The position numbers were made by a program, and so were the translations under genes. The notes under the pieces were generated by a model. It made no database searches. It had not been told where the DNA came from and saw only the letters and a program-made list of their open reading frames with translations. From Plasmodiophora brassicae (Eukaryota): a stretch of DNA of 64,000 nucleotides. Shown here in pieces: positions 16,501 through 60,479 of the stretch (the stretch's first letter is position 1; each line of letters opens with the position of its first letter). The DNA is taken from NCBI GenBank assembly GCA_036867785.1, contig CP145420.1, positions 930,001-994,000 on the forward strand. The letters are read 5' to 3'.

Positions 16501-19500
16501 ATTGTTATTCCCTTGGCGGCTGCATAAACTCGTACGCCGCGCTCCTTACGCTGAGGTATGGATCGTTATGGCTCCAATGGAGTACATTGCTGATTTGCAA
16601 TCATTGCCAGAACCTTTCCGGTGTGGGATTTCGAACACGATTCTTCATGCACATCCGCGATGGCACCTTTGACGTTCCGTTTGCAATCTTATTTATCTTG
16701 CTACTCCCGACATGGCGTTGCCCGATTGTCGTCAAGGTTCGTGTATTTCCAGGTAACCGAATCAGTCCAGTGTATAACGTTTCACGTAGCGGATCTGGGG
16801 ACAACGGAACCGGACAGACTTGCAGGACGTTCGACGAGTCTCTGACAGCAACCGGAACGCTGTCCAGTCGTCACCCGTCGACGTTCGACGCTGCATAGGA
16901 TCCGAGTTCGTTTCGCTTGTGCTCGATATAGTCGCCCTGACGAGCATCGCAATCGTGGTCGTTCTTCCTGGTACGGTGTTGCTTCCACGTCGTGTTACAT
17001 CCTGTTAACCTGTTAGTAACATTCCCAGTTGTGCTTGTTGTGTTGTTCCACGCTGCCACTGCGGTCACGGCTGTCATATTCCTCTTATGCGGATGCCGTC
17101 TCCTGCTCGTATGTCGCGACGTCCGTTTCTGCAGTAAGCCGCCCTGTTGTTCAGTGCTATTGCACACTCACACACACACGTTTGCTCAATGCCTTCTTCA
17201 GATTGGGACGCCGTCCGCGTTCGCTCGGTGCTATACACATCGGCATTACTCGGCGTTCTCGATGCGCCGTGTTTCGTCATGGCTCTGCTCGGGTTAATTA
17301 GCGGGTATCGAACTTCCGAAACGTGGCGCCTTGTCCTGCAGTCGTCCTGGTGCAAAGTCGACCGGCAAAGGCCAGCGCAACGTCATGATCCGAGTCGCGG
17401 TAGGGCTTTCGAGGGTGTACTTGCTGATGAACCACCTGCGTCGGCACCGTCAGTTGCGCCGCCCGGCGACATGCGTCCTGAAGGCTCGCCAGCAGTCGAA
17501 CCTGACCGTGATGAACCACATGCGTCGGCACCGTCAGTTGTGCCGCCCGGTGACATGCGTCCTGAAGGCTCGCCAGCAGTCGGACCTGACCATGGGCAAT
17601 CGCGTCATGCCAGTCAAGAGCCGCCAAACAGCGAATCTCATGATGCTGTTCATGAGGCTCCAGCCGCTATCCAGCAGGGTGCTGCACCCGCGTTGGAACC
17701 CGCGTCGGCAGTCGCTATTGCATGGTCTATCCTTGTGCTCGGGTGCAAAGTCGTTATCGACATCCCTTTCCTCCTTCTCTTCATCCTGTTGATCGTGACC
17801 GGCTGGCGTTCATCAGAAGCGATGAGGCAATACTCCACGAAGAAGGGCAACCTTCCAAGAGCCGCGTTTGCCCTACAGTTCTGCAACCTTGTGATCGATC
17901 TGCCTGTCATATCTGCTGCATTGATCTTGACCTTGTGGGCACATCGAACACGGGGAATGTGGAAAGCCGTCGCCAATGCGCCATCCGCGTCGGACAGACG
18001 GCCAATCATCGGGAAACACATGATCGTTGCGTGTGCTGACGTTCTGGCATTGCCATTTCTGGCCGTTAACATCGTCACGTTATACCGGCTGGAGGGTTTA
18101 CGACTGCGAATCCTGGGCCTGCTGCATTCGGACGGCAGTCTACATGACGAGTTACGACCCCATTGGAACTTCCTCGTCTCGTCTGGTCAGATCGTCGCTG
18201 ACATCCCGCACCTGATCATGGCGGTTATTGTCACGTTTACGTGGCGCTCGCGGTCATTATGGAACGAACTTCTTGCCATACGGCGCGCCAGACGATGCTT
18301 CGAACCAGCGCAGGGTACTGAGCGGCCTCCTCCAGGCTACAGGGAACCGGCGCCTTCCGCACCCAATGTCGACGTTGTCGAATCTGTCGCCGTCGAAATA
18401 CCTTCAGATGCACAACGAGACGTTGCTCCACCGCCCGATCATCTGGCGTTAGACGTCAGTGCGTCACATGACGTTAATCACAGCGTCGAGCCGCCTCCAT
18501 ACGAGAGTCCCGCTCAGCAGGATGACACGAAACAGCTGGCACTTCGCAGCTATCGAGAACCGATACAGCAGGAGTTTGCTGGTACCTGCGTTGATATCCC
18601 GTTTGTTATTGCAGGGGCACTCGCCGCGATTCTACTGCACCGATCGGTCTGCCTCATCCTGGACCTCGGTCGATGCTCATCTGCGAAGGAGCGACGAAAG
18701 GCCGCTGTCTTAAACCTCGCCTTGTTCTTCGTCGACGCGGTCGCTGCGGTCCTGTTCATCGTCCCGATACTGGCAACCGGGTTCCGGCTCCCACGAACGT
18801 GCCGGGATATAGCCAACGTCGCCATGTTCCCACCGGCGCTGTCGCTCGAGGAGAGGGTTCGACCACATGCCGTTATCCTGCGGGAGTGTTGGGCCGCTGT
18901 AGTTGGTACCTCGACTGCCGTCGTGTTCATCGCCATTGCATTGCCCGCAATGGCGCTGTGCCTCTGGAGACTGCCAACGCTAGTGGCTTTCATTCGTGCC
19001 GGCCGTCCACTCATATCGTCCGCGTTCATGATGTGGATGTTTTACGTCCTCGACGTGGTCGCGCTGCTGGAGATGGCGGTCATCTCGTCCCTCGTCGTCA
19101 GGTGTCACTGTTTCTGGTCCGCCTGCCATACCATCGTCCGACAGTTCCGCGAATGGCAGTCCTGCGAGTCCGTTGAGGCTCGTACGGCTTTCGTAGAGCA
19201 GCTGGACGAACGCCAACGCTTCCAGAACGCGCTCAATGATTATTTCGGGACCCACGAAGGGAACGTTCAGTCCGGTGCGTCATTGACTCTTGTCTGGGAC
19301 ATCGTGTCGGAGGAGTTCAGTCGGTCCTTGCTGTCGTAAGTGCCGGCTGTGGAACGGGTGCGCGCGTCCACAGATTGGCTGATACGTTTCGTTGCAGGAT
19401 TCCGTTCATCATCATGCTCCCCTTCAACATCCTGGGGTACGTGCTCCTGCCGCCGTATTACCTCGCGAAGTACCGTGTGGTCAGATGCGCGCGCCAGCTG

Positions 19501-35589: not shown

Positions 35590-35885
35590 CCAAGCAAACG
35601 CCACTCTACAATGTCGTCAAGATGGACCATCCCGCCATTAATGGTCGAGGTGCGGCTGGAGGTCCTGGGCCGGCATCGACCTGGTGACCGGCAACCCGGT
35701 GTTACGTTTGCTGCCATCCGAAATGGTTTCCCTGATACCGTCGAAATGCTGGTCCGCCGCAACGGGATTGACGTTATCGCGGGCAACCCGTTGCTGGAGT
35801 CCGTCCTGGGAGGCCATGTCAGTATTGTGCAGATGCTGGTCAACGATCCCGGGGTCGACGTCAACGCCGAGTCCCGTTGCTGGAG
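35590..35885 (+). pseudogene. Ankyrin-repeat gene fragment
   Basis: AAIRNGFPDTVEMLVRRNGIDV and NPLLESVLGGHVSIVQMLVNDPGVDVNA; truncated by the fold-back at 35892. Confidence 0.7.
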
Positions 35886-35891
35886 GCGCAG

Positions 35892-36255
35892 CTACGCAAG
35901 GGTTCACCATGAACATCGCCGGCAACCTTCAGCTGGTCTCCGCGGCAGCGTTGCTGAGACTGGACTTCCACAAACGGTACAATCATGTTCGACAACGACA
36001 ACCCACTTCTGTTCGGATGCCCGGATTCGTTTCCGGCGTCGTTACCGATTGTGTTCAAAGGCGACATCAAGTCGTACGTCCTGATGGCGCCTTTGAAAGA
36101 AATAGGTAACGACACCGGAAACGAATCCGGGCATCCGAACAGAAACGGGCTGTCGTTGTCGAACATGTACCGTTTGTGGAAGTCCAGTCTCAGCACCGCT
36201 GCCGCGGAGACCAGCTGAAGGTTGCCGGCGATGTTCATGGTGAACCCTTGCGTAG
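35892..36255. repeat. 364-bp fold-back (long inverted repeat) of transposase sequence
   Basis: ctacgcaagggttcaccatgaac... pairs with ...gttcatggtgaacccttgcgtag; centre near 36075; few mismatches and one 4-nt indel. Confidence 0.95.
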
Positions 36256-37480
36256 ATGTCAGGGTCGACTTCATCCTCTTAATCCATCGTTCCATCGGAT
36301 AAGTCCACACGAACCCAGAAATCGGGCCCCATTGGCGAATGACTTCCGGAAGGTGGATCAGCGAATGCATCTGCACGCACAGTGTGACAATCAGTATGTA
36401 GATATTAAGATACTGATAAACGGGGCTCGTACCGATATCGTCAAACCGTTTCCGAACCTCACCGCAAGACGTCGGCGCCGTCAATGCCAGACGTCACCGC
36501 GATAGGGTACTCGTTGAAGCGCAGCGCCTCCAGCATGAACGGACCATACGTATCTCCGAAATAACGGCCATCTGTCCAGTCGCGAAGACTGTCGGACGAC
36601 CGAATTCCCAGAAGAATATTTCGATGACGTTCGATTTCCGATCGAATGATGCCAAACATATGCGCCGACCGAAACAGCGACTGGAGAAACAGGATGCGGG
36701 AAAAGCAGAAGAACCGTTCGGACTGGTTCGAACAACAATCCCAGTCCGGTGGGGAATCACACTCTGGCCACAGGAGACCGTTGCAGCATACGCGATACTC
36801 GAGGAACGGTATCGAGACGCGCGAATCCGACAGATAGGAGCGTAGCTGGGCAAGGGTGGTGATCTCCCCAGAACGTTGAAGCGGAAGCACAGGATCGGCG
36901 TACAAACACTCTCCAAGGTCGTCCACAGGACAGCCCTTACTGGCAGCGTATTCCTTGAACTGTCAGAATTAGAGACAAATATACCGTTTGTCAGACGCGG
37001 TGCTTACGAATCGGGTATACTCCGTCTGGCGTCTTATGTCATCTTTTGTTAGCCTCTCCAATGAACGACTTAGCGACGCCTGCGTACGCTGACCGCGGGC
37101 AAACTCGTCCAGGCATTCCACCGCACGTATAGAGGACGGATCCACCTTCAGCGGAGCCAATCGCTTCGGAATCTCCTCTTTGAGGAACTAAGATTATAAC
37201 CCGAGTTCATTACGGTACTTCTGCTGGAATTCCATCGACCGGATGTCGTCGGCAGACATCCCTGCAACGTCTTCTAATAAGCCCGCCGTAAAGTCGAAGT
37301 CGACTGATGGGGGACCATCAGGGGGTCAGTATACAGCCATAGTTGGTCTATCCCGACGACCCATTTCGTCAGGGATGCCCCCACCATGGCGCGGGTTCAG
37401 AATAGGATCGTTCCTCGCATCGGCAGCAAGAAAACCTTCTCGAGGAAATGCAAGAATGATCGGGTTAGCATCCGCCATGG
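36084..37480 (-). pseudogene. CACTA/EnSpm-type transposase pseudogene
   Basis: QMHSLIHLPEVIRQWGPISGFVWTYPMERWIKRMK (DUF4218-like), DWTDGRYF and SGIDGADV (Tnp2-like), and YRVCCNG; stops and an internal deletion are present. Confidence 0.75.
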
Positions 37481-38457
37481 CATCCAACCGTACGTACGAG
37501 AGTCAGCCCAGACAACCTGGTCGAAGCGAGGTGCGCTAGGTCGTCGCGTCGCACACACAATCGAACACGGCCGATCCGCAGCCCCAAACCATGTTTTGAG
37601 CGAGCTTTGAAAAACCGGTCAGGAAATCAAAAGGAAATCAAACCGCAGGCGGAAGCGGGCGCGGAGCGCCCGCTATCGCCCTTCCTTTTCAACCGCACGG
37701 CAATCAAATGTCGAACCTGGTGTCAGGCGATGCGAACTCGCTGAAGGCATTCCCCATCGCTGGCTGCTTTGACGAAGTGCTCCCGACGACACCGCGGTAT
37801 ATAGAGTATGTTAATCAAAGGTACACTTTATCGATTTCGGCCGTTCAATGACCATCAAAGCGGCGGTTAAGTGCAACCGGTCACTGGTTGTTCACCCGGA
37901 ACACCACTTCCGGTTATACTTCCCATTGCATTCATCGTTGCCGCAAACTTTGCAATTGGTCTTGGGCTTACGAACTCGTTTCGGTTCGTCTGGGTCGCGA
38001 ACCGGGGCCGACAGGCGACGCTTTGAGGCACTTGATGGCGCTACGTCCAGCAGCACCGCTTCAACTGCCGGAGCTGAGGAGGGCGCCAGGCGGATATCGA
38101 GGCTTGCATGATGTGCAGGCTGCGGGACAGGGACAGTCGTAACTATCTCAGATGGCTGGTTAGGAACAGGCGGGGCAATCGTTTGCGGGACTGGAACAGG
38201 CGAGGCAATCGTTTGCGGGACAGGAACAGGCGGGACCTGGCGTTGGACAGGCGCTGCTGCTGACGGGAACAACAACGTTGACGGCGGGATGCGGTTTGAT
38301 GTGCGGACGGAGCGTGTGCTCTCTCGGGTAGTGACCGACGCTGAGGTCCTGTTATTCGATTTCCTCCAGTTCGTATAATACCGTTGAAGTTGTGTTGCAG
38401 TCTTGCGGAAGACGGAAACGCCGTCCGCTTTCGTCCGGAAGACCTCAACAATAGCAG

Positions 38458-41400
38458 TGTTCATCCAGAGTACCAGTACTCAGATGATGCTGCTCAGATG
38501 CTGCTGCCACCCGGTCACATGATCATGACCGTACTCGACCCCGCAGCGGCCCTTGCTGTGACGATCCTGTCCAAATACATCAGTTCGTTATATCACCAGG
38601 CGCCGACTCTTGCGACCGACCGCCCCCGTAGTGGGCAGCGGCGGCGTTAGCACAGAAGCTTCTTGCGCAAAGAGCCCCAAGCAAACGAACTCACTTAATG
38701 GCAGGAGGTGGCCGCAGAACGCCCGTTCGTCTACAGATGGAGGACGACGCCAGGACCAACTCCGACGCCGAGGCCAAGGAGCATGAATCGTCGACAGATG
38801 ACGAAATCGATCGAGGGCTTCAGTCAACAAACCTGCACGGTAAGAGCCCGATCTTTATGCCTTTGAAACCGCCCATCCTACGTACCCTGAGCCTTACGGC
38901 CAAGGACGGAATTAACGATTTCCTCAAGAAATATAGGAAACACGTCGAGATCGTTAACGAGCGCCGACTGATCTACAAGGAGGATATTCATCCGCCAACG
39001 GTGAAGTCATGCATTACCGAGGACGTCCTCAAAGGGATGTCGAAATATCGCCTACGTCAACCCGCCAGCACGATCACGGATGGCGACATCATGAGCTACT
39101 TGAGGTCAGTCCAACGCAGGGAGGCTGATGTCGAGAGTTCGACAGACATCAAGGCGCTTCTCACGAAGACAGTGGTCATGAACCTGTCAATCAAGAGTAT
39201 TGAGGAACGTGTCACGTCTTTCTTCGCCAAGTTCGATGAGCTAATCGACGACTATGGGCTACAAGACACATACGCCAAAGGAACGAAAGGAACCAAGCGC
39301 AAGATCAAGGTATTACGCGGAGGTATCCGTCCCACTGACCTTGCGGTTCTAGTCGAACGCGCGATCGAGTTCGGAGGGTGCAGGGACGCTGAGAAGGACG
39401 AGCTCAAATTCTTCGACCTCGTCGACCGTCTTGCCAAAGAGCAGGACAAACACTTCCGGCTGCAAGCTGAGAAGAAGAAGTCTCCAGCGCAGACCGTGTC
39501 CCCACCTGCAGGTAAGAAAGGTAAGGACGTTGTTGCTCCGAATAGGAATGGCGGCAAGCACCCGACAAATTCGATCGGACTCAAGACAGCTCAATCGTCC
39601 ACATCGCAAACGAAAGATGAATCGAGGGACATCCCCGAGCACATCCGAAAACGCTTCGAAGGTAAGGATCCTCCAAAGGCAGGTTGCCTAATCTGCAAGG
39701 AGCAGCACTGGGTCCAAGTGTGCCCGAAGGCAACACAAGGAGAACGCAAAGCTGCCATTGAAAAGTTCCAGAAAGAGCGCAAAGAGAAGGAGGAGAGTAA
39801 GGGCAACGCAGACGCGGCAAAGCGCATGGGCCCGCCGTCGCTGTCAACACCGTCCCCTATGAGACTTCGCTTCCAGAACTCGCTCGACCTTCCATTCGAA
39901 GCCGATAGTGGTGCGACGAAGACCGTCATTTCGCAATCGCAACTGCTACGGATTCAAGCCATCCAGCATGTCCCAGTCAAAGTGTTCGACCATCCAACGG
40001 AGGCGAAACTTGCAACGATCGGGGCTACGACAACAATTGTCGCCACAGCGATCGTGGACATCACCATTGTCCCACCTTCCCATGGCAAACCTGCACATCT
40101 ACGCGGGCGGGAAATCAACGTATGTCGCGAAGACCTATCTGATGACATTGTCCTTTTAGGAGCCCCGGAACTGGACGCGTTGGGTATCAATCCAGCTACA
40201 CAACTGAAGGAGATGTTAATCGAGGCAAATGGTCCTATCATCATCGAAGCGGATCCGACCCCGGAACGTCACGCCCCAGGTGGTCAAGGGATCACGATGA
40301 GAGCGGTAAGACACCCGGAGGTAAGTGGAACAACTCGCGATCATGAGCCCCAATTGGACACCAATGATCCGGGTGACGACTATGATGTCGAAATCGGAGA
40401 ACACTCCGATACAGACGTGGACAGGGCAATAGACCGGATGATACAACGTGCAACTGACTCCGGTTTCCCTAACGATCAAGTCCCGCGTCTACGCACAACT
40501 GTCAATCGACACAAAGACATATGGCGAACGAAGCTTGGCCGTGATCCACCTGCGAAAGTAAGTCCACTGAAACTACACTTCAAAGCAGATGCTCGTCCTG
40601 TTCGTTGCCGAACACGAAGGTATACCCTCGAACATCAAAAATTCATGGATGATCACGTAGGAACCTTGGCGGAAAACGATTTTGTGTACCGCAATCCGCA
40701 CAGCAGGTACGCGTCGCCGTGTCTGGTCGTCGACAAGAAGGACACGGAGGTTCGCGGCCATCGGCTGACCGTCGACATCAATGAAGCCGTCAACAAACAG
40801 ACCGAACGCATTGCATGGCCGATGCCTCACATCGACATCATCCTGACCTACCTACGTTCCGCGACCATCTTCATGCTGTTCGATGCCTTTAAAGGCTATT
40901 GGCAATTTCCGTTGCACCCTGATTCGCAGGAGGCCTGCTCGTTCATGACGCACATCGCCACGTTTACACCCAGGCGCATCATCCAGGGAATCGCTGATTG
41001 CGTGTTTGCGTTCCAGGCGGGAATGCAACAGGTGTTGGGGAAACTTCTATATATCTGCGCCCTACTCTGGATCGACGATATCCTCGGCTACGTATCTGGA
41101 TTCGGAGCCTACATGGACACACTCGAATCTCTTCTCAACGCTTTCGACGAGTTTGGAGTTAAACTCAACCCTGATCGCTGCCAGTTATATCTCACTTCAG
41201 TGACATGGTGCGGTCGCGTTATATCCGCTGATGGAGTGTCGTTCGATCGCTCGTATCTCAACGCCTTGCACGATCTATCAACTCCTATCACGGCTGCTGA
41301 TCTCCAACAGTTCCTCTCGGGCCTCAATTGGGTCCGTTCTGTTATCCCTCAATTCGCGGCACATGTTCATCCGCTACAGGATCTACTTCTGTCCGCTTCT

Positions 41401-43793
41401 CGTTCTGTCAGCAGTCTGAAGAAATCACACCTACGTCGAGTTCGTTTAGCCGACATCGGCTGGACCACTGACCATCTCACCAGTTTCAATTCTCTGAAGC
41501 ATCGTCTATCGGAGGCCATGACGCTGGCGCACCCCAAGGACGAATGGATCATGTGTCTCTTTCCGGATGCGAGTGACCGTTTCTGGTCTGTTTTCCTGTC
41601 GCAGATCCCTCCGGAAGATATTGATCTTCCGTACGGTGAGCAACACCACGAACCTTTGTCGTTCATCTCGGGGACATTCCGTGGTTCTCAATTGAAGTGG
41701 GCGACCATTGAGAAGGAGGCCTACGCCATCATCGAAGGCTGCTATCGCCTCAGACACTTCATATCTATGTCAAAGTTGGCACTTCGAATCTTCACGGACC
41801 ACCGTAATCTGGTTTTCATTCTGAACCCAGCCTCGGTTGCACGAATTAGTCGGACGACCGGCGATCGCTTGGAGCGCTGGCGACTTCAGATTATCGACCT
41901 AGATTTTCACATTGAGCACATTGCTGGGGAGGACAACCTTTGGGCCGACCTCGCCACGCGTTGGGGCGTCGCCCTGCAACCACTGTCCTCATTTTCCCCT
42001 CCCTCGTTCCGTTCTATTCGTCATATGGCAATTAATCTTGACTTCGACGATTACAAGATGACCGATGAGTTTATCTGGCCGTCTGTCGACGAGATTAGTA
42101 ACGCTCAGACCGACTACATTCGCCAACACGACCTATCTGCCGTTTCTGATATTCTCCAACTCGAAGGGGACATGTCTCTCCACCTTAGCCCGGAATCTGG
42201 CTGGCGTACTCCAGACAATCAACTCTGGGTACCATCACATGCACTGCAGCTACGCATCGCAGTGATTTCACATATGGGACTGTCTGGTCATCAACTTGCT
42301 GCATCGACTATTTCGAGCATCGCGCAACTCTTCTGGTGGCCTGATCTCGATTCCTTTGTTCGTGCATTTGTGGACAAATGCTTACACTGCCTACGCAACA
42401 AAGATTCGATGATCCCCCGACCTTATGGCACGGCTATGCATGCGGACAAGCCCAATAAGGTCATCCACTATGACTTTCTGTTCTTATCCAAACCTCGTCC
42501 AGGCGATTCTCATCAACTTCGTTATGTTCTGGTTCTGAAGGACGACGCTACAGCATTCGTCGAGTTAATTCCTTGTCAATTCGCGGATCACAGCGTTGTC
42601 GCCGAATCTCTTCTGGATTGGTTCAAACGTTTCGGCATTGTTTTCCAACATGTCTCTGACCGCGGCACACACTTCAAAAACGCGGTTATCGCCGAGCTTA
42701 ATAGCCGGTTACACTGCAACCATCATTTCACAACTGCCTACACACCTTGGGCGAACGGCACGGTTGAGGTTGTCAACAAGCGGCTTCTCTTTCTGCTGAA
42801 GTCCCTCCTCTCCGAGCTAAATCTTCCATTCCAGGATTGGCCGTATGTCCTTCCGCTGATCAACATGACGGTAAATCACACTGTTCGATCAAGTGTGGGC
42901 TACGCGCCTGTCACGATGTTTACGGGTTTGCCACCCTCGACACCTATCTCGATTATCTTCAACAAACGCATCGACGCGGTTATCGACGTACCGTTGACCC
43001 CTGACCGTCTCAAGGAAATGACGACGGAACTTATCGATTCTCTCGAGGACATGCACAAAGAAGTGGCACGTACACGCACCCATCTACGTGATCTCAAGCA
43101 ACGCGCCCGGCGTCGCCGACGCAATGTTCGCGAGATCAACTTCACGACGGGCGACTATGTTCTCGTGGCCAACCATGGCAAGCACTCCAAGTCCGAGTAC
43201 AACTGGACTGGACCTGCCCAGATTATCGACACCATCAACGACTGGGTGTATCGAGTTCGAGATCTCTTGACTGATCATATCTCAGATGTACACGCCCAGC
43301 GCTTAATGTTCTATGCAGATGCGCACTTGAATGTCACCTCTTCCCTGAAGCACAACATCGCGCTCACCGGCGTGGCTTACCAAGTCAACGCAGTCGAGGA
43401 CATTCGAGTCAATTCTACGTCAGGTGACACTGAACTACTGATCAACTGGATCGGATTCGATGCCACCGACAATTCATGGGAACCTTACTCGGTCATGGCG
43501 GCCGATGTTCCTGATATCGTCAGGGCCTTCCTCGAACGACAAGCCGAAGGAGACCCGCTCTGCTCACGACTGTTAGCAGATTTCTAACACGGGGAGTGTT
43601 CATCCAGAGTACCAGTACTCAGATGATGCTGCTCAGATGCTGCTGCCACCCGGTCACATGATCATGACCGTACTCGACCCCGCAGCGGCCCTTGCTGTGA
43701 CGATCCTGTCCAAATACATCAGTTCGTTATATCACCAGGCGCCGACTCTTGCGACCGACCGCCCCCGTAGTGGGCAGCGGCGGCGTTAGCACA
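38458..43793 (+). mobile_element. Full-length Ty3/Gypsy LTR retrotransposon with chromodomain
   Basis: 197-bp LTRs (38458-38654 and 43597-43793; TG...CA; identical by eye), 5-bp TSD AGCAG, and a purine run just before the 3' LTR. Confidence 0.97.
38698..43587 (+). CDS. Gag-Pol polyprotein (CCHC, protease, RT, RNase H, integrase, chromodomain), 1629 aa
   Basis: CLICKEQHWVQVC; ADSGA; DAFKGYWQ..LWIDDIL; FPDASD..IEKEAYAI..FTDHRNL; HHCC and SDRGTHF..NGTVE integrase; LINWIGFDATDNSWEP chromodomain. Confidence 0.97.
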   Translation: MAGGGRRTPVRLQMEDDARTNSDAEAKEHESSTDDEIDRGLQSTNLHGKSPIFMPLKPPILRTLSLTAKDGINDFLKKYRKHVEIVNERRLIYKEDIHPPTVKSCITEDVLKGMSKYRLRQPASTITDGDIMSYLRSVQRREADVESSTDIKALLTKTVVMNLSIKSIEERVTSFFAKFDELIDDYGLQDTYAKGTKGTKRKIKVLRGGIRPTDLAVLVERAIEFGGCRDAEKDELKFFDLVDRLAKEQDKHFRLQAEKKKSPAQTVSPPAGKKGKDVVAPNRNGGKHPTNSIGLKTAQSSTSQTKDESRDIPEHIRKRFEGKDPPKAGCLICKEQHWVQVCPKATQGERKAAIEKFQKERKEKEESKGNADAAKRMGPPSLSTPSPMRLRFQNSLDLPFEADSGATKTVISQSQLLRIQAIQHVPVKVFDHPTEAKLATIGATTTIVATAIVDITIVPPSHGKPAHLRGREINVCREDLSDDIVLLGAPELDALGINPATQLKEMLIEANGPIIIEADPTPERHAPGGQGITMRAVRHPEVSGTTRDHEPQLDTNDPGDDYDVEIGEHSDTDVDRAIDRMIQRATDSGFPNDQVPRLRTTVNRHKDIWRTKLGRDPPAKVSPLKLHFKADARPVRCRTRRYTLEHQKFMDDHVGTLAENDFVYRNPHSRYASPCLVVDKKDTEVRGHRLTVDINEAVNKQTERIAWPMPHIDIILTYLRSATIFMLFDAFKGYWQFPLHPDSQEACSFMTHIATFTPRRIIQGIADCVFAFQAGMQQVLGKLLYICALLWIDDILGYVSGFGAYMDTLESLLNAFDEFGVKLNPDRCQLYLTSVTWCGRVISADGVSFDRSYLNALHDLSTPITAADLQQFLSGLNWVRSVIPQFAAHVHPLQDLLLSASRSVSSLKKSHLRRVRLADIGWTTDHLTSFNSLKHRLSEAMTLAHPKDEWIMCLFPDASDRFWSVFLSQIPPEDIDLPYGEQHHEPLSFISGTFRGSQLKWATIEKEAYAIIEGCYRLRHFISMSKLALRIFTDHRNLVFILNPASVARISRTTGDRLERWRLQIIDLDFHIEHIAGEDNLWADLATRWGVALQPLSSFSPPSFRSIRHMAINLDFDDYKMTDEFIWPSVDEISNAQTDYIRQHDLSAVSDILQLEGDMSLHLSPESGWRTPDNQLWVPSHALQLRIAVISHMGLSGHQLAASTISSIAQLFWWPDLDSFVRAFVDKCLHCLRNKDSMIPRPYGTAMHADKPNKVIHYDFLFLSKPRPGDSHQLRYVLVLKDDATAFVELIPCQFADHSVVAESLLDWFKRFGIVFQHVSDRGTHFKNAVIAELNSRLHCNHHFTTAYTPWANGTVEVVNKRLLFLLKSLLSELNLPFQDWPYVLPLINMTVNHTVRSSVGYAPVTMFTGLPPSTPISIIFNKRIDAVIDVPLTPDRLKEMTTELIDSLEDMHKEVARTRTHLRDLKQRARRRRRNVREINFTTGDYVLVANHGKHSKSEYNWTGPAQIIDTINDWVYRVRDLLTDHISDVHAQRLMFYADAHLNVTSSLKHNIALTGVAYQVNAVEDIRVNSTSGDTELLINWIGFDATDNSWEPYSVMAADVPDIVRAFLERQAEGDPLCSRLLADF

Positions 43794-46700
43794 AGCAGTA
43801 AAATCTTTGCCGCACTGGCGCATTGCCTCGTCGAACAGCTTGAACTCTTCGGGTAGGTGCATTGGCATGATTGGAATTGCCATACCGAAGCGTTTGGCGG
43901 CGAAAGCATAGCATCCCGTCAGTTGTCGGGTTGACTGAGGACCGTTTTCGGCATCGGAGCGTTTGATCAGCCTGCACAGGCCAAATTGTTCGCCCGTCGC
44001 TGAGAACGACTTCAACGGGTGCCAGTTCTCGTACACGAGACGTGATGAAACAGACAACGCCAACTCCTGTACAAGTTCGATATTCCATACATCGTAGTGG
44101 CCAAAGAATGGCACGTCAGCACGATGTCGAACGCTGGCCCGCATCAACTGGCGATGACGCTTCTCGGCTAGAATAGCATCTGCTAATTCCAGGGAAGCGC
44201 CGAAGGAACCCATGGAACGGTAGAGGTCCCGATGATACCCGCCTTCAAGGGAATTCGTTCCCCGCGAACAATGATATACGGGTAGGCCCAACTCGTCAAC
44301 CGCAACTTCGGTATAGAACTGGAATCCCGGCGGGTCGCTGAGACACCCTTTCCTGACGTGCACCCTCATTGCCTAGCATGCGTTGACAATATTAGTCGGA
44401 TAAACCAAAGCGTTAGTAAGACAACCAAGGTATCTGACCTCGATCTTCTTCAGACCCGCTTCGGTTAACAGCGGTTCGTTGGTCATTGGGTCCTTCGCGG
44501 AACGATATGCGTCGACCACTGCCTGTACCGCTTCGTCCATCTCGACAGGACGTCGCGTTGCGCGCTTGATCCGGGCGCGCGCCCACCGAGAATTATGGAC
44601 GAAAGCTTCGAAATCGTCCGGGAGCTGACCTGTTTCTTCAAGTTTCCTCCTGACCATTGCTTTGTCTTCTGGATCGACAACCAGAATGGCATCGCGCATT
44701 GCGGCCAGGAACGCGGGTTGGTACGCGTTCGTCGCCTTCACGGGAAGGTCGTTTAGCCAGTGGAATATATCTTTCAAGACAACAACGTCGTCGGATTGCG
44801 ACTCCAATGGCAGACACTCGCGAGCCCTGCGAATTGACTCCAGGCGCACTGGCAGGCGCACAGGAAGCTCCTTGATCGTTTGAAATGCTGGCAACCCGTT
44901 TCGAGTGGCAATACGGAGTCCAGGGGCTGACAGTTCGTCCACTTCAACAAGCAGGACATGTTGTGAGGCCCTCGCATCACGGGACGTTCCGCTGTTTTCG
45001 ACAATGGTCCCGGAGGCGACGCGTTTGCTGTTTCCAATAACGATATCGACGCGAAGGCCCGGGGCAGCGTCACTGACGGGAATAGGGGTCGAGCAATCCT
45101 GGAATCGGCTGAAGTACTGGTACAGCGCCAACCCAGCGAACGCATCGCGGTTCGCGTAACGGATCTGGGCGGGTGACAACGGACCCGACCAGTGTTCCGA
45201 CACACGGATGTGTGCCGGTTTTTCCAATGCAACGTGGAACACCAACGACATCAGCCGCTCCAACGACAGCTTGGACGTGGATAATTTCCCACGTCGCTTT
45301 CCCAGAACAGCGACGTCGACGCAGTTATTCAGGGGCACGCCGAAGTCTTTGAACAGTTTTGCAGCATCATGCTGGATCTGCCTGCCCACTTTGGCAATAC
45401 GGGCGTCCGAGAGTAATGTGCGCAGTGCTCTTGGAAGATTCGTCATCCCGTCTGATACCTGTACAAGGTACATCTCCCCGTTCGTCATTGCCATTTGGAT
45501 CGTCCGCACACGAGAACGGGAAGAGACGAAGCGGCCGCCCACCCGGGACATGACAACGTCCCACTCCTGATCATACCCGATCACGCGATTGTCGGGTGCC
45601 TCGGAAAGAAGTGTGCGGTAAACAGCGTCCAGAACGTCGTTGATTTCAGACGGTGTCGACAGAACGCGACCGTCGCTGGGTGGCCATGAAAAAGACGGGA
45701 CTGAGTCAGGCAGATCGCGAGCACGCTGCCGAGCAGAGATGGACCGTAAAGAGACAAGCTGATCGGTTGCCCCGGTCACAGCTGTAACAAAACTGGCGAC
45801 TGCAGCAGCAAATTCGACAGCCTGCGATGAACGCGAAGATTCCTCAAGAATCCGTTGAGCGCAAACGTTGGTGGCCCGTGTCACGCTCTCAATGACCCCA
45901 TCAAACAGTCGTTCGCAAGTGGTGTCGTCGATATCCACATCCTCGTTTTCAATGGTCTCGAGAAGACACCTCTGAGCAGCAATACGAACGGCGCCCAACG
46001 CAACCACTTCTATTTCGATCAGACTGCGATGAACAACGACGGGGAGCTCGTGGAACAAGTTCTCGCGAATAGAGCGCAGAATGGCGCCCAGGTTGGAACA
46101 AAGTGCTTTTCCCAGAGAGAGCGCACGGAGAAAGTGCTTAAACTCGACGAAAAGGCTGGCATCCTGGCAGCATCTATCGGAAACGAAAAGAGACGGTTCC
46201 GTCAAGTCATTCAACAGAATACGCTTCATGAAGCCGCGCAAAGCTGGCAACAACTCGGCAAGGCTGGCCCCGAACGTCAGCATTTGAAGAACGGGCTCTT
46301 CAAATTCGTTGCAACAGGTGAACAACGCCTCAACAAGTTTCTCGCCGTTGAAACGACGAATCAATTTGGGGATTTTAAAGGAATGATCCAGTTTCAAAAT
46401 CCGACCACTGACGGTCTGCATGAGAAGGTCCATGAGCGGTCGTACCTGTCCGTGGAACTTCACCAAACAGTATTTGAGATACGAAGGTGATGGAACGAAA
46501 CCGTTATAACGGTCGGGGTCAGCAAAGGAAGAAAACTGAGGGGGAGAATTACCCATTTCTCTGGTGAAAGAGTACCCAATCCCCTTCATGCAGTGTTGAA
46601 GAGACCCGAACCACTGGATCTGGGAACGGGAGTACCTGGCAGTATGCCATTCCAGAAGCATGCGATGGTACCCCTCAATGGAAACGCCCTGTTCAGTCAG

Positions 46701-48540
46701 CGACCGCATCTCCTCGATAACAGAATAATCGACCGCACTGCGATGCGTGAGAAACGCAGGAAACTGAACACGAATAAACTCGGGCAGTTGAGCGAGAAAG
46801 CCTTCGTGATAAGCACTGAAAGTATACGAAGGCGCTTTGGTACCCTTGCAACGAGTGCATCGGTACGTCCGCCCAACGATGAAGTAGCATGAATCGCGCG
46901 TGATGACACGTCGACCAGCTGTCCACGAATGGTGGACGACATTGTAGTCACCAGGCTTGGCCTGTCGTGCAGACCGTCTCTGACGACAATGAGGACAATG
47001 AATTGGGATATCGGAGGCCATTGTCTCCGGATCCCACACAATCACGTCGTAGAGGTAGAATCGATTCGGATCCAGGTCATCGACGAACACCTGACGCACG
47101 GCCGCTGAACCAAAACGGACCCAAAACTGTCCCGAACGAACAAGCGTGAGGATGGAGCTGTCAACGCTCTTTACGTTCTCTAGGACAGCGTCCAGGACCT
47201 TCCGCATTACAGGCGATGCGGCATCACCTTTCTTGCCCTTATTCCCGTGACTCATACCTGTTCCATTTCAGCGACATTTTGACATACCAGTAGGATAGCA
47301 ACGGCAGACCTGTGGATGACGATCTCTCATTTGGATACGAGTCCGGATCATCGCCGGCATCGTCCTCGTTATCAGAGTTATCGACAGGCGATCCAGTGCT
47401 GGTAAAACGGTCGAAAGTGTCATCGTCGTCGACTCCGTCATCGCCATTCGATACAATTGTAGGCTTAGCGAATCGCTGAAGCTGGCGTTCAAGCCAGTCA
47501 GTGCCCTTTGTAAGAAGGGGTGACGGATCAGTAGTTGATGCTGCAATATCGCTGGAGTCGGGCATGGATGCAGTGGTGGACGATAAAGAACTATTTGACG
47601 ATGATCGCTGGCGCCCGATAAGGACTGGAGCCAGAGCTGCTTGGAGAGCAGCAATGCTTTGTCCATGCCGCAGCGCGTTCCTCAATTGACGAGGAGCTGG
47701 ATTATTCTCCGGAGGATCCGCAGCATCATGCTCGCGATCGACCGGATTCGGAATGCATTCGTCAGGATTCGGTCGACTGGGATCAACCGGTTCAGCTAAG
47801 ATGAATAATATAGGTTAGTCCCGGAGACGGCAACTCCTGTCCGAGTGATTACACATTGTTGGCCGGATCGACATAGAGGGCGATCTCTCAGGTTGACCCG
47901 ATGTCAAACCAAAGACAAGTGGTGGTTGAGGAACGAGGGACCCGGTTGGCGGTGCCAGAGGTTGCTCTACAGGGCTGGATGCCGTATTCCCAACCATTCC
48001 GCCTGCTGGTTTTCATCAGAAAAGGCATGTGTCCAGATCGAATACTGGTAACCTGTTGCAACATCGCGCTGCGACTGTTCGCGAGACACTTCGACGGCTG
48101 TGTCGGACGGCCCTCGCCGAAAATATGCAGCAATAGACGGCTGCTTCGGCTCTTGTTGAGGTAGAGATTTACTCGACTTGTTCTTTGATCCTGGCTTGCG
48201 TCCCGCTCCAGGGCGATAACCGCCGCGACCACCCATCCTGCAACCGTTTGCCCGCGTCAGAGATCGCCAGCAGCTGCAAGGAAATGCGGAAACGTGTAGC
48301 AAAAAAAACACTGGTGTCTGTAGTCAAAAGTTTCTGCAACTTCTGGAAAAGTTTCTGCAACTTCTGGAAACCCGCCGCAAATGTGCCAAAAAAGGGGGGG
48401 AATCCGACGATGTCCGAGAGTCAAGAGCCATTGTCCGAGAGTCAAGCACCAGTGGGAACTCACTCCGCGCACTGCGTGAGAGCCGTCGGCGACGACTGAT
48501 GGCAAAAAATGCGGAAGTCCGTCAACCTGACGTCACACGT

Positions 48541-48805
48541 TTTGGCGCGATGGACCAGTTGGCCACTATTACGGCACTCCAGAAATCACACCAAAACGCA
48601 TAGAAATCTTAAAAGCACATAGATTTAGATGTAAAATCGCTTAGGCAAGTTTCTGAGCCAATGCAAACTGGATTAAAAGCTGTTGACAGTTTAATTCCTA
48701 TCGGACGTGGCAGGGGTCGCACCTATTGTTAGCTCCTGGAATCGGCACTTTCACCGCCACTCGGGTAGGTCAGGGCACTGATTCGGCACTTCTATTTTTC
48801 CAGTG
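48541..48805. mobile_element. CACTG-family terminal/subterminal remnant (one end only)
   Basis: Ends ggcacttctatttttccagtg, the same TIR as 56295-56315, and aligns with 56161-56315. Confidence 0.85.
48583..48713 (+). pseudogene. atp1: Organelle-type ATP synthase alpha fragment (probable NUMT)
   Basis: AT-rich 131-bp insert absent from the homologous terminus at 56161-56315; reads RQVSEPMQTGLKAVDSLIPIGRG. Confidence 0.8.
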
Positions 48806-49140
48806 GTTGCTGAGACTGGACTTCACAAACGGTACATGTTCGACAAGGACAACCCATTTCTGTTCGGATGCCCGGATTCGTTTCAGGTGTCGTTACCGAT
48901 TGTGTTCAAAGGCGACATCAAGCCGTACGTCCTGAAGGATATGGAGCGTGCGTGGCTGCATGCGACACTGATCGACGAGGAGCAGCGGCCCAGCATATGG
49001 AACCATCTCTGGAGGCGCAAGTACGTGCTCCTCGTCAAGCAGTTTCAGCGTTCCACCGGCATTCAGATTTCGTCCTATCATCACGTCAAGCGCCAGCTGT
49101 CGAACTTTGACGCGTTTTGTCAGACTGGGGACATTCAGCG
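48806..49140 (+). pseudogene. Third fragment of the CACTA-type transposase (C-terminal continuation)
   Basis: 48806-48935 matches 35950-36084 and then continues LKDMERAWLHATLIDEEQ. Confidence 0.7.
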
Positions 49141-49289
49141 GCAGTACCCAGGTCTATGCCTTCCAAGTCGCCTGGATTGCTGCGGCCGTCTTCTAATTGG
49201 TACGTGCGTTGTATGAAGGATGCTGCTGTTAATCGGATTGAACCGATCTAAATCTTAGGTGCGTGTCTCTTCCGAACGCAGGATGCTTA

Positions 49290-49423
49290 TCCACACCACT
49301 AAACCGAGTGACGTGAACGGGCCCGTAACCTGCAAGGGGTTGCGCTCAACGGGGTTGGTGGAGACTGGAGGGGGCTGCACCTAGGAGGGAGCGGGCGAAG
49401 CGCAGCGAGCCCCGAACGACTAG
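49290..49423 (+). mobile_element. Putative non-autonomous mini-Helitron
   Basis: A|TC start, GC hairpin gggcgaagcgcagcgagccc about 8 nt before a CTAG|T end, no TSD. Confidence 0.5.
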
Positions 49424-49597
49424 TACCTCCTACCCGAAGTCGAGCAATTGTAACTTCTTGATGAACTTCATTGATGACGGCCTCTACCTTGGAACAGCCA
49501 CGATGTTCTGCGGTGCGGAATACGGCCACAGCGAACCGCATGGTTGTATGTACCCGGGGACCGCTCAGCGCGTACGCTTCGAGTCGCAGTACCTGTG

Positions 49598-51876: not shown

Positions 51877-53293
51877 TCAATCCTTCTGTATCATAACGGT
51901 GGCCTTGCGTCTGCGCAGGGCGGCGCGTCGGGCAGCAATAGCAGCACGATGTGCAGAGGGCGGTTTCGGGGCCTGGTTCTGCACCCGCTCGTCGGCGTAA
52001 TAGTTCGCCCACGGGCCGCCCGTCTTTGAATAGTAGTCCATCGGATGCGGGCGCAGGTGTCTGACGCTGCTTAGCGCCTGGACCGCCTCGTACGACGATA
52101 GCAGCGGTTTCGCGAACGCCGATCCCCAGTCGATCGATAACCTCGGGCTAGCAGCGCCATGTGTCAGACCGAGCACGCGCCCACTGGGCAACTCCACGTC
52201 GTACCATGCGATTTGCACCCAGGCGTCAACGTCGGCGAATAAGGCCAGCTTGTCTGGAAAGATCTCCGACAGCAGCACCATGGTGTACGGCAAGTGCCGC
52301 TCTTTGAGCATCGACTCGACGCGTTCCAGGATCTGGATGTTGCCCTGGCGGCCGAGCGTGCCGAGGATAATCCCCCAGGATTTCGCGTGTACCGCTTCGT
52401 TAACGGCCAGTTGCCGAGCTGTCATCAGACGGTCGTGCGCGAAGGCCTCTCGCGTCAACCGCTTCCCGTATGGGTCGTAACGGTACGCGTCCAGCCACGG
52501 GTTCGCCATCATCATTGATTCCAGGTGGAACCTGCCATCGGCGACGAAGACCAGGGCGTCACAGGTGCCTTCGGCAAGGCTGGGGGCAGTGCACCCGAGC
52601 ACCTCGCCACGAGACAGTGGACGGCATTGTGGCACAAGGGCCCGGTCACCGAGTGCTTGCGAGGCAGCAGCGATCGCCGATTCGAACTGGATCGTCCCCG
52701 CCAGGCAAATACGGGATGACGGGTCAAATGAGGCGTCAACAGTATCGACTGAGAGCGTGCGCGCGTCAGAGCAGGCAATCACGGCGAACGGACGCGCGGA
52801 CCAAGGTGATTGACGTCGATTTGGATATCGACAAAGACGTACAGGCACGGTATCCTGGACGTCGATATCGGGACCAGGCATGAATGCCCGTAGTGGACGA
52901 GCAGGTCGGTTTGCAACGCGGCCGCCGTATAGTCGTCGATGCAGCATGCCCCGTACGTGACATCGCCCAGAACAATGACGTCGTCCACGCTGGTGAAGGT
53001 CGTCAACAGGTCCCCTAGCGTCAGAGTTATACAATGGCTGCGGTACGTACGGAGCATGCCCCGTTACCGATAGTGCAAGCGTACGCGAGCAGCCCCTCTG
53101 GAAACTGCAATGCGACGCATCGAACATTGTCCTGCAGGCATCGCCGGACCGTCTTCTCGATCTCGAACTCGTAGTTGGACGGCAAGCATTCAGCGACCAA
53201 TTCCGCCAGCTTCCGTCTGATTTCCGCGGGCAGAATCCGGTCACCCTCAATGCCGGCCCGGCGTGTGTAGCGCCGGACAGCGTTCAGTGCCAT
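51877..53293 (-). CDS. DPH1: Diphthamide biosynthesis protein 1 (multi-exon)
   Basis: [64 protein letters not shown] and PRLSIDWG. Confidence 0.95.
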
Positions 53294-54581: not shown

Positions 54582-56315
54582 CACTGGAAAAATAGAAGTG
54601 CCAAATTAGTGCCATCCCGTGGATTAGCCCGTCGGCCCTTTATTGGCACTTGACGACACCAAATTGGCACTTGGTAGTGCCAATTTGGTGCCAATTTCGG
54701 GCCCCGATTTTCCAAAAATCCTCTCAACGGACGTCCTTCCAAAAAACGTCATACGATTTTTGCTCTCCCTACCGGTATAGTAATAGAATGGAATGGTTCC
54801 CCAGTTATTGAGACACTATCGTATTTGGTATTTCAACGAATGGTTTATTGTAACTGTTCCTTGATGGGCGCCGATCCGCGACCCGCCATTGACCGCGACG
54901 TCAACGTGCCGTCAGGATCGATCGGCAAGTGGAACAAGTTTTGTACGTTGCATGTCCGCCACCCTCGTACATCATCGTGTTCTATAACCTGCATCCGTGA
55001 TCAGATGATGCAACTGGATGCCAACAACAACGGCCATACCTTTCAACGCGCCTGGCCGCAACGCCGCCTAAATTCATACATAACACAATGAGGGAACACA
55101 TGATGTTAACGTTGCCGTTGCGTACCATTGTGGCCAGCTGGATGCGAAGGCACCCCTTGATGCTGGGCCTGCAGCCAAACGCATTATAAATAATGGCGAC
55201 GTCAAAACCATCGAATACGTACCGCGTCCCGCAGCGACCTATGGCGAAGACGGGCACCTAGTTCGTCGTCCGGACAAACTCGTTTGGGATCTCCGCCAGC
55301 AAACGCGATCACATGACCGTCTTGTACTGCGCATCATAAAGACCGTTAGCGACTAAACCCCAGAGACAGAAATGCTCGACGTACGTGAAAGATTTTGAAT
55401 ACGGCATTGCACTGCGAACGCTCATCAGCTGCAGCCGGCGAGTTCCGGTGACGAGCCTGATCATCTTCCGGTGAAGTGCCAATCTATAATGTATGTTGAC
55501 TTGGACAAATTATCAGATAATTATAAAGTGGAACACCAAATAATTCACATACGCTGGCGAGTGTCAGCCATCATCGGCGGGCAAGCCCAATTGCACGGCC
55601 ACTCCGACGGGATCCTCTGGAGCAGACGGCGTTCTTACCGGGACAGTTCCGCTCCAGCTGCTCAGACGTGTTGACACTAATACACGAGGGTAGTGAGCGT
55701 CCTTGATTTCGGATACGCACACGCATACAGGAGCAATACCTGGAGTAGACACGAGAAACCAGGTACACTGCAGGCCTTATCGTGCAAACCGTTCGTACAC
55801 GGCCATGCCTGCAACGATACGGATACGTCTGCCGACGAATCCATTTGAAGAATGAGGACGCGGGTGCCAATTCGTCGTCGATGTCGAAGCCCGGATCGGA
55901 ATCCGGATTGCGCGCCTTCCCGTTAGTGTGTGGTGGAGGTGCAGCGTCGGGCCCGCATTCGGCAATGTGTGGTGGAGAGGCACCGTCGGGACGGAAAAGA
56001 AAGGTGCGTTGGTGAGAATTACCGAGCCGTCACCTCGAAAGGCGTGTCAGCTCAGGTGGCACCGTGCAGTCGCCGGCTGCTCGCAAAAAAGCCCAGCTCA
56101 GGTGGCACCGTGCAGTCGCCGGCTGCTCGCAAAAACGCCCATCATCCTGGCATCCCAATTTTTGGCACGATGGACCAGATGGCACCATTTCGGCACTCCA
56201 GGTGTCGCACCGGCTCCTCATCGGCACTTGCCTATTGTTGGCCCCTGGAATTGGCACTTCAATCGGCACTCAGGGAACGTCCGGGCACCAATTCGGCACT
56301 TCTATTTTTCCAGTG
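54582..56315. mobile_element. Complete non-autonomous CACTA-superfamily (CACTG) element, 1734 bp
   Basis: Perfect 21-bp TIR CACTGGAAAAATAGAAGTGCC, 3-bp TSD CTA, GGCAC/GTGCC subterminal repeats, and an internal ~46-bp tandem duplication at 56048-56135. Confidence 0.93.
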
Positions 56316-59291: not shown

Positions 59292-60479
59292 ACCCTACGC
59301 CTGGATCGGCGAGCACCACTGCATACGTACACGTACGTAGCGAAGTCGTTGTCTCGAGTGTCGTTACGCGAAGTACGTAGCGAAGTCGTTGTCTTGCAGC
59401 TGTCGTTAGCCGTCATCGGCGGCCGATCTCGTGGGTCGCCCCACTATGGACGCAGGAGCGCTCGCTCCCGACATCGATGGTGTTCTTCGGCGCCTTCAGG
59501 ATACCAGTCGATTCGTGTTCCGATTAGTTGGGGTTGGTCGTCTTACAGGACACGGTCCAAGACTGGTGCTCGACGAGGTTGGTGGACGCGGAAATCATAC
59601 TTGGCTCGGGAGAGAAATGGTCGGGGTTACATGATGGAACTGGTGTATTGGTAGGCGTGGCGACCGACCGGGATTTCAGCCACGCCGGGAGGCGTTTCCC
59701 TGCGGACGCACAGGGCAGGACTGCGACATGGCCAGCCACCCCGCAGTAAAGGCATAGGCCTTCGCGACGACGGCGATCTTTCTCGTCTTGGGTTAAGGGC
59801 GCGCGGGGCCACCGCCGATCGCGGCGTCGATAACCATGGGATCCCCAACCGCGGCGGCCGGGGCTGGGGGAGGAGTGGACGGCACTGCGGCGGCGCCGGC
59901 TGAGGCAGCAGGGACAGGAACGAGGGCGGTGGTCGATCGGTGCTCAGCCAGGCGGTTGTCACACCGGATTGCCTGTATGACAAGCTCGTCAAGCGTCTCG
60001 GCGACGGGCAGGGACAGGACAGGCCGGCGCGGAACATGTGTCGGCAAGCTGAGTCGTTGAACCCGGCGTCCGCCGCCAGGTTCTGGAATTCTGTGGCGAA
60101 GCGGGCGACGGTGCCTCGGCCCTGGCGAAATTGCTGTAGCTTCCGTGCCGCGGTCTCGACTTGATGAGGGTCGCCGAACCTGCTCTTTGCGGAGACGAAG
60201 GCGCTGAAGTCCTTCATCAGGTCGTCATTCCGCTCGAACAGTGGGTTAAACCACTTTAGGGCGTCGCCACCCAACAGTTGGCCCACCAACGCGACCTTCT
60301 GAGCGTCTGTCGCGTATGTGTTGGGCTGCTGGGTGATAACCAGTTTGACCTGGTTAAGGAAACCGCGAAGTTCGCCCCGGCCGCGCGCCGTTGTATGTAG
60401 GCGGAAGCTTGACCTTGGGCTCGGGAGCATGAGGTTGTGAGACCGTTCGCTGTTGTAGGGAGGCCTGAGCCTGCGTCAG

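Follow-up and report, generated by a model that had tools for sequence, protein, structure and literature searches.

A transposase-type gene of Plasmodiophora brassicae with a WRN-type exonuclease predicted to be nested in its DDE core

A 64-kb window of the genome of Plasmodiophora brassicae (the whole of the stretch analyzed here, on contig CP145420.1) contains one copy of a gene whose product joins two nuclease folds in a single chain. Positions 45108-45593 of the window encode a WRN-type DEDDy 3'-5' exonuclease with intact catalytic residues, predicted to be active, and structural models show this exonuclease, together with a small all-beta domain, interrupting an RNase H-fold core of the Asp-Asp-Glu (DDE) type between strands b4 and b5. 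In our reading, to which we give a probability of about 0.6, the gene represents in P. brassicae a transposase-type protein family not described before. The protein would then be, or recently have been, the transposase of a DNA transposon, with a fold nearest to that of the IS256/Mutator-type enzymes and probably not a KDZ (Kyakuja-Dileera-Zisupton) element.

Results

The gene is read from the minus strand, and its largest part is a 964-codon stop-to-stop open reading frame (ORF; 44373-47267). P. brassicae is a rhizarian, and one deposited protein, P0004, is 99% identical to the window's product. All five motifs on which the initial annotation had based an intact DEDDy exonuclease inside a transposase core lie in one frame of this ORF, and residues D546, E548, D614, Y684 and D688, the complete catalytic set, are all present, with their five codons located. 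The Pfam profile DNA_pol_A_exo1 matches ORF residues 559-720 with an E-value of 1.2e-12 (48.5 bits against a cut-off of 23.6), and the closest PDB sequences are the mouse WRN exonuclease (2e6l, E 1.1e-16), EXD2 (1.8e-15) and human WRN (1.3e-14), with the D-x-E, D and Y-x3-D motifs of the window protein aligning with the catalytic motifs of WRN. An AlphaFold model of P0004 (mean predicted local distance difference test score, pLDDT, 84.6; predicted template modeling score, pTM, 0.72; 64 aligned relatives) superposes on 2e6l with a Z score of 27.1 and a root-mean-square deviation of 1.9 Å over 185 of 186 residues at 32% identity, while Foldseek pairs it with WRN at 3.5e-11 and a template modeling score of 0.84. 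When PDB sequences were searched with a profile of the whole family described below, WRN was again first (3.4e-49), followed by EXD2 (7.9e-35) and Mut-7/Nibbler (1e-21), the last also a structural match to the P0004 model at Z 17.4-17.9. The domain thus shares its fold and all five catalytic residues with WRN, EXD2 and Mut-7/Nibbler, and differs from them in having no RecQ helicase, membrane anchor or MUT7-C partner and in being nested in an RNase H-fold enzyme.

That nesting is read from the predicted structure. In the P0004 model, strand b1 (270-276, carrying D274) is followed by b2, b3, helix a1 and b4 (340-343), with D344 immediately after; next come a linker (346-497), the exonuclease (514-700), the beta domain (719-794) and b5 (809-812), which leads directly into D813xxH816, a helical domain (814-962), a beta hairpin and a helix (963-977) that bears E966. 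A search with the whole model returned ISCth4, an IS256-family transposase, as its first non-exonuclease match (6xg8_A, Z 11.3, root-mean-square deviation 5.9 Å, alignment of 328 of 401 residues across the stretch 53-1011 of the model). Because exonucleases filled the lists of this search, we also folded P0168, a natural homologue that has no exonuclease (pLDDT 77.7, pTM 0.80). ISCth4 ranked first in the search with this core (Z 10.8, 317 residues aligned; VIA-align), and DDE integrases and transposases accounted for 29 of the 30 top-ranked chains (Z 6.7-10.8), among them PFV (9.6) and RSV integrase (9.2), Hermes (8.5), TnsB and IstA (both 8.4), Mos1 (7.9), MuA (7.8), the P element (7.7) and Tn5 (7.0), with RAG1 (6.2) and Transib (6.1) at ranks 32-33. 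In Foldseek, ISCth4 was the sole entry with a match at E<=1e-3 (best chain 7.6e-4), four further ISCth4 chains reaching up to 7.7e-3 and the next entry standing at 0.08. Since P0168 matches ISCth4 and other DDE enzymes, we read the two flanks of the exonuclease as the halves of an RNase H-fold DDE core built around D274, D344, E966 and D813xxH816. The models accordingly place the exonuclease and beta domain between D344 and D813xxH816, bearing out the insertion that had been proposed from the sequence.

The nested design is not peculiar to P. brassicae. An HMMER search of 1.84 billion protein cluster representatives gave 3668 matches at E<=1e-3, of which 1372 were at <=1e-10 and 245 at <=1e-30; a word-based protein search recovered only 2 proteins, and two single-protein scans of metagenome loci found no relative. 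Among the 150 best representatives, 140 contain the exonuclease piece and 111 combine it with both the N-terminal and the C-terminal part. The order core-N, exonuclease, core-C was seen in all 101 single-copy proteins in which it could be tested, a count that uses the core halves only and sets three multi-copy rows aside. Pfam found the exonuclease in all of the top 34 relatives and DUF6729 in 32 of them, one relative also carrying an OTU domain and a different one a Ulp1 protease, and in a scan of 45 members the exonuclease was present in 43, the two without it being P0168 and P0072.

Conservation of the two active sites is equally broad. In an alignment of 106 members, all five DEDDy residues are kept in 94, the D-D-E triad likewise in 94, and both sets together in 85, most failures being gaps at truncated ends; the loss of catalytic residues in most copies, which the initial annotation had named as a possible objection, is therefore not what the family shows. 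Single residues of the core are kept in 100 (D274), 104 (D344), 103 (D813), 105 (H816) and 100 (E966) of the 106 proteins, and the columns conserved to at least 90% include D274, N300, D344, D546, E548, D614, Y684 and D688 as well as D813, H816, H827, R960, G961, T962, E966 and H970. The family consensus extends through the stretch of the all-beta domain, which forms part of the inserted module, and ends in CxxxxxxGxxxxxxC, whereas of 150 representatives only 2, the paralogues from P. brassicae, match the helical linker.

Of 30 representatives looked up, the rest being metagenome or run assemblies, those with a name come from P. brassicae, the chytrid Podochytrium, the Mucoromycota Phascolomyces and Apophysomyces, the Agaricomycetes Marasmius, Lentinula and three species of Mycena, and the aphelids Amoeboaphelidium and Paraphelidium, so the suggestion that similar fusions might exist in fungal elements proved correct, the same design being widespread in fungi. 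P. brassicae itself has, besides the window gene, one paralogue at 43-47% protein identity, a distance at which synonymous sites are saturated. Databases list these proteins under automatic names such as "3'-5' exonuclease", "DUF6729 domain-containing protein", "ribonuclease D" and "SANT domain-containing protein". One Podochytrium sp. protein (P0007, 3352 aa) holds three tandem units of OTU protease, DUF6729 and exonuclease in a single gene model, as if an element that had gained OTU were present there in tandem or nested copies.

Two Apophysomyces lineages naturally have no exonuclease. The P0063/P0168 cluster reads ...TDNVQGDQKFLQE directly followed by DIFH..., and P0072 has the same type of junction. 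In all three proteins ...FLQE and DIFH... meet with no exonuclease module in between, and in P0072 the aspartate of DxxH is replaced by glycine and the stretch after the E motif is shortened. These proteins could be either decaying copies or gene-model artefacts.

The gene appears to be transcribed and spliced. Contigs of four public sequencing runs (X4, X9, X13 and X14) were aligned to positions 36500-49500 of the window, and those of X9, X13 and X14, which belong to three studies, lack all four short GT-AG introns, whereas the four joints were not seen in the X4 contigs. No run is on record as RNA, and it is from these intron-less contigs that we take X9, X13 and X14 to be RNA. A 4341-nucleotide (nt) contig of X9 (about 43765 to 48330) and a 4259-nt contig of X14 (about 43765 to 48246) are spliced and match with 0 mismatches. 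The resulting model has five exons, an ATG at 48236 and a stop codon at 37892-37894. Its fourth intron (gt..tactaac..ag) contains the TAG that ends the 964-codon ORF, and the NCBI model P0004 also removes it, reading KKIE directly into AMRVHV. With the introns taken out, the coding sequence stays open from the ATG for 1407 codons, up to a retrotransposon insertion in the last exon (Table 1). Two pairs of 21-nt tandem repeats, 48326-48367 and 48411-48452, lie just upstream of the ATG, around the point where the longest transcript contig has its 5' end (48330), and may be promoter elements or subterminal binding sites.

Table 1. Positions in the window of the exonuclease-bearing gene, its domains and motifs, and the retrotransposon that interrupts it
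Feature	Position	Strand	Basis or remark
Whole transcription unit of the exonuclease-bearing transposase-like gene	37892-48330	-	ORFs and spliced contigs
Intron 1 (47 nt, GT..AG)	48006-48052	-	joints in X13, X14; alternative joint skipping 48002-48051 in X9
Intron 2 (57 nt, GT..AG)	47796-47852	-	joints in X9, X13, X14
Intron 3 (52 nt, position of the cut uncertain by 2 nt)	47256-47307	-	joints in X9, X13, X14
DUF6729 region, N-terminal zinc-ribbon-like (CPHC...CTRC) and helical	46527-47075	-	Pfam PF20499, E 4.5e-18, ORF residues 65-247
First core half: b1-b3, a1, b4	46176-46400	-	model secondary structure, structural matches
Codon of D274	46386-46388	-	
Codon of D344	46176-46178	-	
VSDRCCQD	46161-46184	-	core motif
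Helical linker, about 150 residues (346-497)	45717-46172	-	long helices, pLDDT about 60-67
WRN-type DEDDy 3'-5' exonuclease domain	45099-45704	-	Pfam core 45108-45593
IGYDQEWD	45558-45581	-	ExoI motif
IQHDAAKL	45354-45377	-	ExoII motif
IRYANRD	45144-45164	-	ExoIII motif
Exonuclease catalytic codons	D 45570-45572; E 45564-45566; D 45366-45368; Y 45156-45158; D 45144-45146	-	
Small all-beta domain that follows the exonuclease within the inserted module (P0004 719-794)	44826-45053	-	model strands
Second core half: b5, DxxH, helical domain, RGTNxxEGG helix	44124-44783	-	spans intron 4
VLKDIFHW	44757-44780	-	core motif
Codon of D813	44769-44771	-	
Codon of H816	44760-44762	-	
Codon of E966	44244-44246	-	
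Intron 4 (66 nt, in frame, position of the cut uncertain by 1 nt)	44372-44437	-	joints in X9, X13, X14
C-terminal cysteine cluster CKVCGNDECNGKYNRKWC	37901-37954	-	severed from the gene by the retrotransposon in this assembly
Ty3/gypsy-type long terminal repeat (LTR) retrotransposon with chromodomain, in the last exon	38458-43793	+	Pfam RVT_1, RNase H, rve, Chromo
LTRs of the retrotransposon	38458-38654 and 43597-43793		197/197 nt identical
Target-site duplication AGCAG	38453-38457 and 43794-43798		

The retrotransposon is a complete element with one 1651-codon ORF. The frame of the host gene meets the insertion at a codon boundary and resumes beyond it for 186 codons, ending in CKVCGNDECNGKYNRKWC, and the intact protein would therefore measure 1407 + 186 = 1593 residues. 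Uninterrupted alleles exist: contigs in X4 (depth 436) and X13 (depth 3.8) join 38452 directly to 43794, and P0188 and P0189, from other P. brassicae records, read DFTA followed by IVEVF across the insertion site. The insertion is very recent and polymorphic, and truncates the gene in this assembly. Summed over contigs, the depth of the retrotransposon amounts to between several and about ten times the depth of the host gene and suggests a multi-copy element with recent activity. Its polymorphism makes the insertion usable as a marker of P. brassicae isolates.

Discussion

Among solved structures, the modeled core of the window protein is nearest to IS256-like enzymes. Members of the IS256/MULE (Mutator-like element) group carry terminal inverted repeats and create target-site duplications of about 8-11 bp, and a [C/D]xxH motif after the second D and before the E is reportedly typical of them, as Yuan and Wessler are said to have described in 2011. 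The likeness of our protein to this group lies in a D, D, E triad on a predicted RNase H fold, with D813xxH816 following the second D and preceding the E, and in the structural match of its non-exonuclease parts to ISCth4 (PDB 6xg8 and 6xgw; Z 10.8-11.3 with 317-328 of 401 residues aligned). It differs in matching no profile of the group, in the exonuclease and beta domain between b4 and b5, and in features of its own, namely DUF6729 at the N terminus and the cluster of cysteines at the C terminus. IS256-like elements are themselves paired with eukaryotic MULEs in a passage of PMC5718144.

Other transposases, too, have an RNase H fold that is interrupted by an extra domain. In Hermes, the P element and RAG1/Transib the inserts are non-nuclease domains that follow b5, and all four appear among the structural matches of P0168. 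The insert of Hermes is the all-alpha domain of the hAT group and that of the P element binds GTP. Judged by the secondary structure of the model, our protein would instead carry its exonuclease before b5, and the helical domain 814-962 would occupy the usual site after b5. An excerpt of PMC3985635 likewise reports that Hermes carries an insert in its RNase H fold. The nearest precedent in print that we found concerns LTR retrotransposons of rotifers, in which, according to the part of PMC5718144 that treats them, ORF3 derives from a DEDDy exonuclease; there it is a separate ORF of a retroelement rather than a domain nested in a DNA transposase. Neither a transposase-exonuclease fusion nor DUF6729 was described in the literature searched, Repbase and subscription journals lying outside that search. 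What would be new here is a DDE transposase family with a second nuclease nested in its core, the proteins themselves being already in databases under automatic names.

Several observations weigh against reading the window gene as part of a transposase family close to IS256 that mobilizes, or recently mobilized, an element. Transposase profiles do not match: at nominal E<=10, MULE was hit in 1 of 45 members (E 0.14) and Transposase_mut and Mutator in 0 of 45, no transposase family recurred in the scan of these members, and the family profile met no transposase among PDB sequences at E<=10. ISCth4 leads the retroviral integrases by only about 1 Z unit (10.8 versus 9.6) and is distinguished mainly by its aligned length, and the search lists held no KDZ structure, so the structure searches cannot decide against KDZ. 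The role of the exonuclease is a pure inference, its characterized relatives including the small-RNA trimmers Mut-7/Nibbler. At the locus itself, a repeat search, a flank-versus-flank blastn comparison and a sensitive end search found no terminal inverted repeats or duplications near the gene ends, and the protein collection searched contains, for each of three P. brassicae records, one protein more than 90% identical to the window's product, in two cases on a contig of about 1.25 Mb, as well as the distant paralogue. A depth step of about 5-fold in X4, described below, is not readable as copy number, no single-copy gene having been compared. Since the MULE and IS256 profiles fail as well, we refrain from assigning the family to the Mutator superfamily; its nearness to IS256-like enzymes is a matter of modeled fold.

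These points bear most directly on whether the gene is still mobile. With one protein above 90% identity per record and no termini found, the window gene may be low-copy or domesticated in P. brassicae. Taken further, it could be an immobile nuclease derived from a transposase and kept by its host, rather than an active transposon, and the spliced transcripts from three studies and the intactness of both catalytic sets would suit such a gene. We nevertheless hold domestication to be rather unlikely. Loss of 186 C-terminal codons to a polymorphic insertion is tolerated by the gene, and the X4 contigs hint at further, decaying copies: there are variant contigs with indels of 1 nt at 46427 and 46503, and beyond 48484 four contigs diverge. 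The depth of X4 contigs is 82-88 on 36511-37611 and 386-467 on the gene (37746-48153), with the step between 37611 and 37746; the gene unit may be present in additional copies, or else the left flank may be polymorphic. Elsewhere in the family, moreover, protease add-ons, tandem units and near-identical copies, traits typical of mobile elements, are found; two proteins of one cluster at more than 90% identity lie on different contigs of Mycena pura, and one identical family protein occurs on 10 contigs.

Two candidates for the outer limits of an element were considered and rejected. A joint in X4 from 37627 to 48401 could have marked an empty site of the whole element, but the 35 letters between its arms look like diverged left flank and its shorter side spans 29 nt. 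A 135-nt unit (35950-36084 direct, 36067-36201 inverted, and 48801-48935) was tried as a terminal inverted repeat and set aside as dispersed, coding-like and present in direct orientation too.

If the window protein is a transposase, the position of its exonuclease invites a proposal for its role, for which the initial annotation had suggested end trimming, donor-site repair or the degradation of silencing small RNAs. In relatives that have no linker, some 12-20 residues separate the second catalytic aspartate from the exonuclease. The chain returns just before b5, and the active site of the exonuclease is preserved at the same frequency as the DDE triad. From this adjacent position and equal conservation we infer that the exonuclease acts on the transposase's own DNA ends. 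In such a coupled reaction, both nucleases would work on the same ends, the exonuclease perhaps trimming the 3' ends of the excised element for joining or integration, or alternatively trimming the donor flanks after cleavage and hairpin opening. We would place the chances of a coupled reaction at somewhat short of even.

An exonuclease directed at RNA, for instance one that degrades or trims small silencing RNAs aimed at the element, would accord with the match of the family profile to Mut-7/Nibbler. WRN and EXD2, which are DNA exonucleases, are much closer by both profile and structure, and the domain is nested beside the DDE site in 101 of 101 proteins instead of being a free ORF or a terminal domain. 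Because of this nesting, a coupled reaction on DNA fits better, and we consider an RNA role improbable.

The placement of the core remains to be set against the KDZ elements, since the initial annotation had taken the gene for a KDZ transposase that took up an exonuclease. KDZ proteins occur in fungal hosts, are rich in cysteine at the N terminus and show D...D...H...E motifs, a layout similar to that of the present family, whose fungal hosts include Agaricomycetes. Pfam represents them by KDZ_trans and by CxC domains. We know of no solved KDZ structure. Of the profiles that the annotation led one to expect, DNA_pol_A_exo1 and DUF6729 were matched and the KDZ profile was not: neither KDZ_trans nor a CxC domain was found in the window protein at E<=0.1, in 34 relatives at E<=1e-3 or in 10 more at E<=0.01, and at nominal E<=10, in a scan with no true KDZ protein as positive control, KDZ_trans was matched in 0 of 45 members and CxC in none. 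The N-terminal cysteine pairs of the window protein fall within DUF6729. Protein language-model look-alikes of the C-terminal half and of the exonuclease-less core belong to Mutator, Transposase_mut, MULE, ISL3 and IS66 clusters and never to KDZ, although their scores of 0.76-0.83 are weak and serve as leads only. With the best structural and language-model neighbors of IS256/Mutator type, and the closest solved structure being ISCth4, the KDZ label is not supported; we judge a KDZ origin a long shot, and the family is probably not a KDZ element. In the portion of PMC12730594 available, KDZ elements are described as DDE transposases of fungi whose recruited accessory enzymes include TET/JBP dioxygenases, with target-site duplications of 7-8 bp reported for Kyakuja and Zisupton. 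Such carriage of accessory genes would suit the KDZ alternative, but the accessory enzymes described there are separate genes rather than domains nested in the core, and the word "exonuclease" has 0 occurrences in that portion of this account of fungal transposons carrying TET/JBP genes, supplements aside.

That the fusion is an artefact, whether of neighboring genes or of an exonuclease that landed in a dead transposase and is read through by chance, is hardly credible and is refuted by the uninterrupted 964-codon frame, the single spliced contigs that cover the whole unit with 0 mismatches, the identical domain order in 101 of 101 relatives from distant taxa, and the confident single-chain model (pTM 0.72).

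A wider proposal, which we put forward as doubtful, is that the DUF6729-exonuclease proteins are the transposases of a distinct and unnamed DNA transposon superfamily, present in fungi, aphelids and a rhizarian, whose chemistry needs a built-in 3'-5' exonuclease. If this were true, an RNase H-fold enzyme housed within a second one would stand in for, or add to, second-strand cleavage, the opening of hairpins or the repair of ends by the host, and would amount to a new route of cut-and-paste or copy-out transposition. DDE transposases are otherwise known to rely on host factors to tidy their DNA ends. A transposase with its own proofreading-type exonuclease beside the active site would be a machine that processes its ends by itself, and a handle on how excision footprints and integration-ready ends arise; in hundreds of lineages this exonuclease is no less conserved than the DDE triad. 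The family also explains a large block of fungal proteins labeled only "3'-5' exonuclease" or "DUF6729", labels that could mislead counts of WRN-like repair genes.

Other features of the window

The one long inverted repeat near the gene pairs 36067-36201 with 48801-48935. It is formed by the 135-nt unit rejected above as a terminal repeat, which makes a near-perfect palindrome at 35950-36201 and recurs at 48801-48935. The unit lies inside ORFs that read alike (HKRYMFD..PFLFGCPDSF), and one ORF there, 35861-36493 (-), has a weak DUF4218 match whose E-value of 5.9e-4 is below the cut-off in strength. The repeat unit may be a remnant of another transposon family. Further repeat matches link 48722-48805 with 56231-56315 and 54582-54613.

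The gene model of P0189 (1743 aa) continues past the window gene into downstream ORFs corresponding to 35861-37187 (-) of the window, including the DUF4218-like one. It is probably a merged model, and its name, "SANT domain-containing", may stem from this run into the downstream ORFs.

Two long ORFs elsewhere in the window, 13508-16672 (+; 1054 codons) and 17138-19339 (+; 733 codons), have no Pfam match at E<=0.01. A diphthamide synthesis gene lies at 51877-53283. The ORF at 59627-60475 (-) matches Retrotrans_gag and a Ty3 capsid (E 1.3e-12), and is another retrotransposon fragment.

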